A stretch of 64,000 nt of DNA, from positions 1,856,001 to 1,920,000 of the forward strand of contig CAXXDV010000003.1 in assembly GCA_963674745.2 (NCBI GenBank), read 5' to 3'. Under the pieces are notes generated by a model. It worked only from the letters and a program-made list of their open reading frames with translations. It was not told the DNA's origin and made no database searches. This stretch comes from Desulfosudaceae bacterium. GTDB taxonomy: Bacteria; Desulfobacterota; Desulfobacteria; Desulfobacterales; Desulfosudaceae. The position numbers were made by a program, and so were the translations under genes. This document shows positions 1 through 2,744 of the stretch, piece after piece. Every line of letters starts with the position of its first letter. Positions within the stretch are counted from its first letter, which is position 1.

Positions 1-534
1 GAGTCTGCTCATCAGCCGGTCATGGTTGACCCGGTCGAAGAATTTGGACAGGTCCATGTCGACGACATGGGTGTATCCGTCTACCATGTGCCGCTTACCC
101 TGCATAACCGCATCATGCGCGGATCTACCGGGCCTGAACCCATAACTGGATTCAGAAAAGGCGGGCTCCCAGATCTGTTCTACGATCTGGGCGACGGCTT
201 GCTGGATACACCGGTCAAGCACCGTGGGTATTCCCAGTAAACGCACCCCCCCGCCCGGTTTGGGAATCTCTTTCCTTTTCACCGGCAGCGGTTTGTGGGT
301 GCCGTTTTGCAGGTCGTTCTTAATTTCAGGCCAATGCCTGGCCAGGTATTTCCCGAGTTGATCGGTTTTCATCCCATCAACTCCGGGCGCTCCCTGGTTG
401 GCACAAACCTGTTTCCAGGCCCGGATAATGTTACTGCGGTCAAGAATCATCTCCATTAACCGGTCACTTTCTCCCAGACGTTCGGCAATCTGTGACGCTG
501 CAAATATTTCCATCTGCTGTGGCTTTGTATTCAC
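1..534 (-). CDS. ltrA: Group II intron reverse transcriptase/maturase, N-terminal part (truncated by window; absent from ORF track)
   Basis: Hand translation from GTG at 534 (AGGAGG upstream) is open to position 1. It contains NQGAPGVDG, EIPKPGGGVRLLGIPTVLDRCIQQA, FSESSYGFRPGRSAHDA and VVDMDLSKFFDRVNHDRLM, the group II RT0-RT3 motifs. Confidence 0.95.
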   Translation of the reverse strand, partial: MNTKPQQMEIFAASQIAERLGESDRLMEMILDRSNIIRAWKQVCANQGAPGVDGMKTDQLGKYLARHWPEIKNDLQNGTHKPLPVKRKEIPKPGGGVRLLGIPTVLDRCIQQAVAQIVEQIWEPAFSESSYGFRPGRSAHDAVMQGKRHMVDGYTHVVDMDLSKFFDRVNHDRLMSRL

Positions 535-1065
535 AAGTACACACCTCCTAATCGTCACTATCATTTACCCGTCCCATTCGGTCCGGGCACCGTTCCGGCC
601 TTCACCGGGGTGAGTCCTCCGGGTATACTTCTCCCGCTTAAGGGAGGCCCGGCTCGTATCCTCCAGCTACTATGCCATCTGCTGACTTCTCCCATGCGGT
701 CAGGGCCGGTTACCCGACCCTCAGCCGTTTTCCGGCACATGGGAGATCTCCCGGGGTAAACACATGTCTTTCGATACGTGAATGCCGAGTTTACGGACAC
801 GCCTTAAGATGGATAGAGGACTTTATCTTGTTGTGCAGACTCGTCCCGGCGTGCGCGCCTTATACTCGATTCCTGTGCGTCATCCCGTACCTTCGCGGTG
901 CCCCGCCGCAGCAGGGCGGCTTCCTTCCGAAGCACCGTCACCGGCACCCCGTTGCACTACCGCTACACCCTTCGCCTCCATCAGGCTGGGTCTAAGACTT
1001 GCCAAATACGTCAATATCTTATATGTTTGGCTCACTTTTAAGAACATGTGCCGTGCCCGGCACAC
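1..1065 (-). mobile_element. Group II intron (class IIC, attC-targeting type), 5' part; continues beyond the left window edge
   Basis: The minus strand begins GTGTGCCGGGCACGG at 1065 (GUGYG 5' consensus), directly after the exon sequence TTGT (1069-1066). About 530 nt of GC-rich non-coding sequence follows, then an RT ORF. Confidence 0.9.
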
Positions 1066-1190
1066 ACAATCAATCAAGCGCAAAGGACAGCAAGGGCACT
1101 CGGGTTTTGAACATTTGGGGGGGGTGAACAACCGTAACCATAAACCAAGTCAGTGGAAGCCCTGGCTGCCATTGGCTTCAGACGTTATCG
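1066..1190 (+). repeat. attC-like recombination site 1, interrupted at its 5' AAC by the intron
   Basis: Colinear with 1793-1917 (first 46 nt identical, same 121-nt distance to GTT). Imperfect inverted repeat CAGCAAGGGC...GCCCTGGCTG; ends GTTATCG. Confidence 0.8.
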
Positions 1191-1211: not shown

Positions 1212-1793
1212 ATGCATAAGTACCTGACATCAAATGCAACTATAGACTGGGAAACCCCTAAAGTCATAGCTAAAGCAAATGAACTTGCTCAAGGCATTGA
1301 TAGTTCTGTGGAAATTGCAAAAAAATGTTTTGTATTTGTACGTGATGAAATAAAACATAGTAACGATCACCAATTAAATCCTGTTACATGCAAAGCTTCA
1401 GATGTGCTTGAACACAAAACAGGATTTTGCTATGCCAAAAGCCATCTATTAGCAGCTTTGCTCAGGGCAAATAAAATTCCGGCAGGGCTTTGTTATCAGC
1501 GGCTTACCATCGAAAATGATAAGCCACCATTCTGTTTGCATGGCCTTAATGCTGTATATCTGCCAGATATTGGGTGGTATCGCATTGATGCAAGAGGGAA
1601 TAAAGAAGATGTTTCCGCAGAATTTAGTCCTCCTGTAGAAAGACTTGCTTTCAAAATCGTCCATGAAGGTGAGGCAGATTTTCAAGAAATATGGTCAGAA
1701 CCATTACCTGAAATAAAGGAAGTATTGGAATCATCAAGCTCATATCAGGAAGTGGCTGACAATTTACCTGATATTGAAATAATTAAGAGCTAA
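1212..1793 (+). CDS. Transglutaminase-like family protein (gene cassette)
   Basis: GFCYAKSHLLAALLRA...LHGLNAVYL...WYRIDARG gives the Cys-His-Asp triad. AT-rich. The stop TAA lies inside the AGCTAAC inverse core of the next attC. Confidence 0.85.
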   Translation: MHKYLTSNATIDWETPKVIAKANELAQGIDSSVEIAKKCFVFVRDEIKHSNDHQLNPVTCKASDVLEHKTGFCYAKSHLLAALLRANKIPAGLCYQRLTIENDKPPFCLHGLNAVYLPDIGWYRIDARGNKEDVSAEFSPPVERLAFKIVHEGEADFQEIWSEPLPEIKEVLESSSSYQEVADNLPDIEIIKS

Positions 1794-1917
1794 CAATCAA
1801 TCAAGCGCAAAGGACAGCAAGGGCACTCGGGTTTTGAAATATCGGGGGATTTGAACAACCGAAAACTTTAACCAGGTCAGTGGAAGCCCTGGCTCCCATT
1901 GGCGGCCGCCGTTAAGC
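1788..1917 (+). repeat. attC-like recombination site 2 (130 bp, intact)
   Basis: Starts AGCTAAC overlapping the upstream stop codon and ends GTTAAGC. Internal imperfect inverted repeat; near copy of 1066-1190. Confidence 0.8.
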
Positions 1918-1937: not shown

Positions 1938-2744
1938 ATGAAGTATAAAATGCCCCTTACTTTTTGTATTATTTTCACCATGGCCATATCGGCGATTTCT
2001 CAAGACGATCACGTCTTTGAAGACATTATCCGCGGTGCTTTTGCTGGACGTGAAGGGACTTTTGTTATCATCGACTGCTCAACTAGCGAAATTCATGATT
2101 TCTATCCGAATACATCCTCAAAAAGAATTGCACCCTGCTCTACATTTAAAATATGGAATACCTTGATTGGACTTGAGAGCGGATTAATTTCCTCATCGGA
2201 TGAATCTTTCTATAAGTGGGATGGCATCGAGCGATCAATTCTGGCATGGAACAAGGACTTGACGTTGCAGGAAGCCTTTCAGGCTTCGTGCGTACCAGCC
2301 TTCCAGTCTCTCGCTCGAAAAATTGGCCCTAAGAAAATGCACTCATGGATTGACAAGATTGGTTATGGAAACAAAGATACATCGGCAGGAATAGATGTTT
2401 TCTGGCTTCCTGCCAGCGGCAGAAGAACCATTTTAATTTCGCCGATGGAGCAAGCGCAACTGATTTACAAACTTATTTCAGGCAATATGCCTTTTTCGGA
2501 TAAATCTATAGCCGCTGTCAAGGACATCATGAAAGTTCGAGAAACCGACCTTGGGACTCTTTATGGCAAAACCGGCACAGCTACAAATGAAACCGGAACT
2601 TATGTCTTAGGATGGTACGTTGGGTTTGTGGAAAGTAAAGGAAAGACATATGCCTTTGCTTGCACAGCAACGGGTGATAACGTTATGGGCAAAGATTCAC
2701 GTGTAATAGTTGAAAGAATTTTGATGAAACAAGGGATATTGTAA
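1938..2744 (+). CDS. Class D (OXA-like) serine beta-lactamase family protein
   Basis: Signal peptide plus PCSTFK (SxxK), SCV (SxV), YGN, FWL and KTG motifs in class D order. Confidence 0.9.
   Translation: MKYKMPLTFCIIFTMAISAISQDDHVFEDIIRGAFAGREGTFVIIDCSTSEIHDFYPNTSSKRIAPCSTFKIWNTLIGLESGLISSSDESFYKWDGIERSILAWNKDLTLQEAFQASCVPAFQSLARKIGPKKMHSWIDKIGYGNKDTSAGIDVFWLPASGRRTILISPMEQAQLIYKLISGNMPFSDKSIAAVKDIMKVRETDLGTLYGKTGTATNETGTYVLGWYVGFVESKGKTYAFACTATGDNVMGKDSRVIVERILMKQGIL

Follow-up and report, generated by a model that had tools for sequence, protein, structure and literature searches.

A class C group II intron at an attC site in a Desulfosudaceae genome, with an interrupted reverse transcriptase and six ORF-less copies

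Results

The intron and its insertion point

The window, by which we mean the whole 64,000-nucleotide stretch analysed (G000:C3:1856001-1920000), begins inside a group II intron that is read on the minus strand. Window positions 1..1065 (-) hold the 5' 1065 nt of a group IIC intron of 1932 nt, recognised from Rfam matches and from both ends being found on the contig; the left flank of the contig places the full element at C3:1857065-1855134, with C3:1855134-1856000 lying left of the window. The intron runs from 5' GTGTG to 3' ...CCTATCCCGAT, and the 3' exon begins TATGC. Around the junction the minus strand reads ...GATTGATTGT|GTGTGCCGGGCACGG, so that TTGT occupies window 1069-1066 and the first intron G is at 1065. 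The intron 5' end, GUGUG (window 1061..1065, -), fits GUGYG and is the same in 7/7 genome copies and at 17/17 related 5' junctions. The TTGT (1066..1069, -), with which the 5' exon ends, belongs to the R'' box of a site we call attC-1 and is the candidate IBS1, complementary to an ACAA loop at 831-834.

A sequence-only reading of the window had placed the insertion at TTGT/T in the attC R'' box, splitting R'', and the junction letters at 1069-1065 and the left flank agree. It had also foreseen a 3' exon beginning TA that restores the inverse core; the left flank gives ...GCATA|ACAATC..., and without the interruption the plus strand would carry ...GCATA|ACAATCAATC..., which has a TAAC inverse core. 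The antisense orientation that it had proposed was found as well, the flanking ORFs lying on the strand opposite to the intron. A chance match or a mis-called junction is ruled out by the Rfam scores, by the 7/7 genome copies and by the junctions in related genomes.

attC sites and cassette arrays

Interrupted attC-1 (1066..1190, +) lacks the first R'' bases and extends from ACAATC... to an R' box, GTTATCG, at 1184-1190; R and L stems form when its bottom strand is folded. Its intact sister, attC-2 (1788..1917, +; R'' AGCTAAC, R' GTTAAGC), is the last attC of the array and holds an empty TTGT/T target. Positions 1791-1798 of the sister site read TAACAATC, and its ACAATC begins at 1793, 727 bp from 1066. 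Starting at the insertion point, 46 nt in a row are identical between the two sites, and so are 109/130 aligned columns. An integron attC is expected to carry R'' and R' boxes (RYYYAAC ... GTTRRRY) and to form an imperfect hairpin, once per cassette along an array. The attC reading rests on motifs, periodicity and integrase. Bottom-strand folding compared with shuffles gave z -1.80 for attC-1 and z +1.00 for attC-2, neither of them significant, so the attC call gains more from the intron than from folding, and the earlier use of the intron as independent support for that call holds. Between the two sites lies a cassette ORF (1212..1793, +) whose product is transglutaminase-like (PF01841, E 4.7e-14).

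How widespread are such sites in the genome? R''/R' boxes at a spacing of 124-130 nt recur 26 times in C3:1821858-1847650, 42 times in C1:1483900-1519711 and 18 times in C1:2102516-2116423, as against 0-2 in each of three 50-kb control regions. The motif finder is crude and strand-blind and misses attC-2 (score 12), so these counts are lower bounds; together the three arrays hold at least 90 attC-like sites. In the C3 array copies of the intron family occupy 4 of at least 31 sites, and all 26 of the 26 empty sites listed carry AAC[A/C]A. The near-identical target in attC-2, to which attention had been drawn, is thus indeed empty but is not special, being one of at least 27 empty sites with the same motif.

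Integrases above the TIGR02249 cut-off lie at C3:2348261, C1:2117407 and C3:27977, and only the array at C1:2.10 Mb adjoins one. At its left edge the C3 array has nothing integrase-like, and no integrase lies within 490 kb of it, which makes this array an attC cluster without an integrase. Flanking ORFs lie on the strand opposite to the intron at 7/7 copies in all three arrays, and the position of intI confirms the antisense orientation for the C1:2.10 Mb array. All seven copies sit at integrase-distal array ends: in the last 9.7 of 36 kb (C3), in the last 2.5 kb (C1:1.48 Mb), and past the last detected attC (C1:2.10 Mb). One possible reason for this clustering is that a split attC is perhaps non-excisable. 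The placing agrees with the statement, in the parts of PMC3001079 consulted, that most IIC-attC introns are found in last cassettes.

Several neighbours deserve mention. The upstream cassette encodes a Phd/YefM-YoeB toxin-antitoxin pair (L001:120-622 (+), which is C3:1854620-1855122), and a PIN-HicB-like pair precedes the next ORF-less copy, so that intron-split attC sites here adjoin addiction modules. Directly after the last attC, window 1938-2744 (+) holds a class D beta-lactamase-like ORF with an STFK motif, whose NF012161 score of 216 bits falls short of the 250-bit cut-off. It lacks an attC of its own, a convergent MBL-fold gene ending 16 nt later, and it may be a flank gene, not a cassette. 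Left of the window, the C3 array also contains a second group II intron (C3:1849533-1851730; L112:3534-5731 (+)), of a different RNA type, that matches RF02012 and RF00029. It lies on the cassette-sense strand between two ORF-less copies, and its RT (RVT_N, RVT_1, GIIM) is split into two overlapping frames.

The ribozyme and outward promoter-like sites

On the minus strand, window 947-760 matches RF02001 (group-II-D1D4-3; 118.7 bits, E 4.5e-25), the domain I core, and 723-597 matches RF01998 (group-II-D1D4-1; 47.7 bits, E 7.8e-7), the region of domains II-III. The same pair of families matches 5/5 class C reference introns, Kl.pn.I3 included, unlike the different intron in the C3 array, which matches RF02012 instead. 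The last 100 nt of the intron fold into two hairpins, domains V and VI (z -3.75). Domain V is a compact hairpin of 34 nt that begins ACCGCC and has a 2-nt bulge; a CGC triad and a short upper helix of domain V are marks of class C. Domain VI has a bulged A 8 nt from the intron 3' end. The short IIC domain V predicted for the left flank is therefore there, together with a bulged-A domain VI. With the GUGYG 5' end, an AY 3' end and small domains I-III, these features fit a class C ribozyme. The distal stem of domain VI is wholly different in sequence between the full and the ORF-less copies with its pairing kept, a fully compensatory change. The Rfam domain V model, RF00029, found no match in this intron family even at E <= 1; it matches 3/5 of the class C references.

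The intron contains three promoter-like sites, compared with 0.6 +/- 0.9 in shuffles. One, TTGCCA-17-TATGTT (999..1027, +; 9/12 consensus match), lies in domain I and faces outward to the downstream cassette; it resembles the published P1out, given in the excerpts of PMC3001079 as TTGCCA-17-TTTAAT. Another outward site, TTCACC-17-TATACT (601..629, +), is the only one of the two retained in the ORF-less copies, which do not keep the site at 999-1027.

The RT/maturase and its stop codon

The window carries the first 178 codons of an RT/maturase ORF (1..534, -). The sequence-only reading had started this ORF at GTG 534, and the details bear it out: the 178 window-encoded residues are an RT N-terminus that matches Pfam RVT_1 with E 5.8e-19, a Shine-Dalgarno AGGAGG (544..549, -) lies 9 nt upstream, and 436-aa relatives share this start. 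When read through its stop, the full ORF has 436 codons and carries RYADD, and Pfam finds in its 435 residues only RVT_1 (90-296) and GIIM (313-391). The predicted combination of YADD and domain X without an endonuclease domain is therefore what the left flank encodes. The protein scores 431.7 bits on TIGR04416 (cut-off 300). Among solved structures it aligns end to end with the GsI-IIC RT (482.5 bits, 406 residues) and scores 378.6 bits with the E.r. IIC protein, 298 and 294 bits with IIC maturase fragments, 139.5 with a IIB protein and 136.1 with the IIA protein LtrA. Its domain content and the end-to-end alignment fit the class C layout of RT, X and a C-terminal DNA-binding region.

An intact RT, a mark of an active mobile intron, is absent here: an in-frame TAA stands at codon 301 (C3:1855632-1855634), left of the window and between the RT and maturase domains. 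The stop letters are unchanged in read-derived contigs from two runs of one sample, which may be the source data of the assembly itself, with other letters at 0 for depths of 13.3 and 11.3; 530-nt records also span the place without difference. All 7/7 full-length close relatives lack the stop, and public data hold an intact allele of 436 residues that is 99% identical. Given that allele, the lesion is young and may be polymorphic. A tblastn search of the genome found no other RT of more than 31% identity, so the intron's RT is the only one of its kind there. Two places, C3:2340330-2339326 and C1:2271827-2272831, whose tblastn statistics are identical to each other, both encode another RT of 31% identity, and one of them sits 8 kb from the integrase at C3:2348261.

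ORF-less copies

Comparison of the intron with the genome by blastn revealed six more copies at other attC sites, each exactly 710 nt long and without an ORF: three on the plus strand of C1 (C1:1482610, C1:1484849 and C1:2101347) and three on the minus strand of C3 (C3:1848974, C3:1852941 and C3:1854484). They differ from one another at 2-8 positions, and with so few differences in 710 nt their spread was recent. Over intron nt 1-510 their identity to the RT-coding copy is about 93%, and a 50-nt domain V stretch is identical. Where the ORF would be they carry an unrelated stretch of about 120 nt, and homology to the full copy extends about 30 nt into domain IV; by analogy with other group II introns, this stem may be the RT binding site.

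Among the 41 genomes searched, the exact 710-nt form occurs in the source genome only. Ribozyme parts are matched in 9/40 other genomes and in 0/2 genomes of the same genus; a genome from another family carries a 921-nt ORF-less relative inside an attC-like hairpin. In read-derived contigs, joints from 713-715 to 2062-2166 correspond to the ORF-less forms, and no joint skips the whole intron; contigs drop rare forms, so this last point is weak evidence. Contigs of three runs join L001:721, near domain V, to L001:2548, 17 nt from the intron 5' end, with 3 extra letters between; the assembly holds no such form. In a related assembly, one copy of the family directly follows the 3' end of another (L056:490-600, ...CCTATCCCGTT|GTGTGCC), in tandem. 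A limited search of the literature, consulted in part, found no description of ORF-less IIC-attC introns.

Target sequence and EBS1

The 5' exon ends T[T/G]GT at 7/7 genome copies (2 TTGT, 5 TGGT), and all of their 3' exons begin with T. Related genomes supplied 17 5' junctions anchored by blastn, L026 and L102 among them being the same sequence; 10 end TTGT, 3 TGGT and 4 GTT, and the 3' exon begins with T in 20/21. The Kl.pn.I3 reference, taken from pIMP-1495 (NZ_KM977631), has the same junction as here, CTTTGT|GTACG...CCCGAT|TAG. Other class C clades that we fetched insert elsewhere, the Verrucomicrobiota-type after GC hairpins at CTA/CTC and the Bacillota-type after terminators with T-runs.

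The candidate EBS1 is the ACAA (831-834, -) of an 8-nt domain I hairpin loop, GCACAACA (829-836), located from the Rfam structure line. The loop could be read at 21 of the 23 junctions examined; there GCACAACA occurs with TTGT 8 times and with TGGT 5 times, GCACCACA with TGGT 3 times and with TTGT twice, and GCAACACA with targets ending GTT in 3/3 cases, against 0/18 for the other two variants. In these sequences the ACAA and ACCA loop variants appear to follow TTGT and TGGT loosely and weakly, in 8/13 and 3/5 cases. The pairing of GCAACACA with GTT supports the assignment of this loop as EBS1, these being related junctions and not independent ones.

Lineage of the RT

Relatives of the RT that are 81-90% identical occur in Desulfobacter curvatus, D. 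vibrioformis, D. postgatei, D. latus, Desulfospira and Desulfobulbaceae assemblies, and relatives 71-72% identical in Desulfosarcina. Three trees were made. The first has 55 rows, all the fetched RTs that are free of stops and have 370 or more aligned residues, one duplicate being dropped; the second has 87 rows, namely 43 labelled ones and 44 representatives of 400-500 residues from among P0242-P0300, other representatives being left out; the third, a careful tree, has 60 hand-picked rows. Their IIC-attC references are Kl.pn.I3 and its relatives, G.s.I1, N.e.I1 and the Desulfurivibrio intron being absent. All three set the RT among terminator-type and plasmid IIC RTs, and all three hold the query clade (100%) apart from the Kl.pn.I3 clade (99-100%). 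In the careful tree a polytomy of 44 rows (97/99) gives rise separately to the query clade (8 rows, 100/100) and to the Kl.pn.I3 clade (9 rows, 100/99), and it also contains clades inserting after GC hairpins at CTA/CTC; terminator-type Bacillota introns fall just outside it. An AU test did not reject a topology in which the two clades are held together (p 0.911), and the tree from the constrained search exceeded the quick free tree by 43.9 log-likelihood units. Identity is about 48-49% to members of the Kl.pn.I3 clade (L037, L042) and 53-55% to terminator-type Bacillota RTs. Five plasmid loci found via the query RT are ordinary class C introns outside integrons.

By sequence, then, the RT clade is class C. 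Of the placement that the sequence-only reading had proposed, the class C part stands, by structure scores and trees; a place inside the published IIC-attC lineage is possible. That lineage is, in Figure 3 of the partly consulted PMC3001079, a monophyletic node of RTs with 100% bootstrap.

Discussion

What brought the intron into attC-1? We consider it highly probable that window 1-1065 (-) is the 5' part of a class C group II intron that retrohomed, in the orientation opposite to the cassettes, to TTGT/T in the bottom strand of the attC. By analogy with IIC and IIC-attC introns, a particle of intron RNA and RT would recognise the folded single-stranded attC hairpin, TTGT would be paired by the four-base EBS1 loop ACAA and the 3'-exon T by a single additional base, and the intron RNA would then reverse-splice into the DNA. 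Since the RT has no endonuclease domain, cDNA synthesis would be primed from the replication-fork strand. The six ORF-less copies would need RT in trans. The insertion parts R'' from the rest of attC-1, and so should keep the toxin-antitoxin cassette upstream and the transglutaminase-like cassette downstream locked together; the outward promoter-like site in domain I may drive downstream genes.

One could imagine instead that the ORF-less copies spread at the DNA level, by cassette duplication, integrase or homologous recombination, and not by retrohoming. Near-identical attC arrays do favour recombination, and three integron integrases are present. However, 6/6 copies differ in their flanks on both sides, 6/6 are exactly 710 nt with the same junction base, they are distributed over two contigs and three arrays, and the 921-nt ORF-less relative from another family sits at an equivalent position. 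We therefore think spread at the DNA level very improbable, and retrohoming remains our explanation. Whether retrohoming continues is a different matter. The stop may have killed the sole helper RT, so that the family is now immobile in this strain and the seven copies are recent fossils, and we put the chances of this as even. The TAA at codon 301 precedes GIIM (313-391), the genome has no second RT above 31% identity, only 4 of at least 31 C3 sites are occupied though 26/26 listed empty sites carry AAC[A/C]A, and no contig skips the whole intron, weak evidence given that contigs drop rare forms. Set against this, ORF-less copies only 2-8/710 nt apart point to recent spread, the 99% identical intact allele in public data makes the lesion young and perhaps polymorphic, and there may be read-through or a strain mixture.

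A further question is one of ancestry. The family might behave like IIC-attC introns yet stem from a class C lineage of its own, with Desulfobacter-type hosts at its centre, its attC targeting either gained independently of the S.ma.I2/Kl.pn.I3 lineage or inherited from a shared ancestor. That the query and Kl.pn.I3 clades are distinct branches of the 44-row polytomy would fit such an origin, as would the lower identity to Kl.pn.I3-clade members (~48-49%) than to terminator-type Bacillota RTs (53-55%) and the 5' end, GTGTG here and GTACG in that clade. It is possible however that the two are one lineage: the AU p of 0.911 for the joined clades and the 43.9 log-likelihood units by which the constrained tree surpassed the quick free tree weigh against a separate origin, target and orientation are common to both clades, and the tree was made without the published members G.s.I1, N.e.I1 and the Desulfurivibrio intron. 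On balance we find separate ancestry possible but somewhat doubtful. Taking retrohoming as the route of insertion, we would tentatively combine these points, with more doubt than confidence in the combination, into a single proposal. The 710-nt elements would be a non-autonomous attC-specific family, a group II counterpart of MITEs, that recently spread through three arrays via the lineage's RT in trans; the clade centred on Desulfobacter-type hosts would be a second attC-specialised class C lineage; and copies would pile up integrase-distally because a split attC is no longer excisable.

To our knowledge, no retroelement other than IIC-attC introns specialises on the recombination sites of integrons, and a role in building cassettes has been proposed for these introns. 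The locus extends attC-homing class C introns to the large chromosomal arrays of sulfate-reducer-type genomes, and the intron gives independent support to the reading of the window as attC sites and cassettes. A single genome here offers a natural set comprising a freshly broken RT copy, six near-identical ORF-less copies, at least 80 empty targets and three integrases. Such a set could be used to test trans-mobilisation, to work out the target rules for TTGT, TGGT and the GTT-shifted variant, and to learn how a split attC affects cassette excision.

Relation to known introns

The element is of a known kind. Its RT is broken, and its ORF-less copies are unusually numerous. IIC-attC introns are defined, in the parts of PMC7923331 and PMC3001079 consulted, by insertion into R'' of the attC bottom strand at TTGT/T, opposite to cassette transcription. 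The members described in those excerpts (S.ma.I2, E.c.I7, Kl.pn.I1/I3, G.s.I1 and N.e.I1) resemble the present intron in their class C ribozyme and endonuclease-less RT, in their insertion at that target antisense to the cassettes, in their occurrence in integrase-less arrays as well as in integrons, mostly in last cassettes, and in an outward TTGCCA-17-nt promoter-like site in domain I. Unlike them, the query RT falls in its own 100% clade, about 48-49% identical to environmental Kl.pn.I3-clade members (L037, L042). The 5' end is GTGTG, not the GTACG of the Kl.pn.I3 clade, TGGT/T is used here as often as TTGT/T, and the RT-coding copy is broken, with ORF-less derivatives outnumbering it 6:1.

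The terminator introns of the GsI-IIC (Geobacillus) and B.h.I1 type share with the present family their Rfam families, the lack of an endonuclease domain, a hairpin upstream of the insertion point and a short IBS1, and the GsI-IIC RT is the best solved-structure match to the query RT (482 bits). They differ in their target: the terminator type (L031, L033, L041) inserts after a GC hairpin and then a T-run, whereas the query family lies inside attC R'' at T[T/G]GT/T. The ORF-less copies find their nearest parallel in those bacterial group II introns that lack an ORF and rely on a related RT in trans, which the consulted part of PMC4424553 calls rare. Like those, the copies here share a genome with a related RT-coding intron and retain all ribozyme domains, with homology reaching about 30 nt into domain IV. 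Unlike them, the copies in the present genome outnumber the RT-coding intron and are attC-specific, and their presumed helper is broken.
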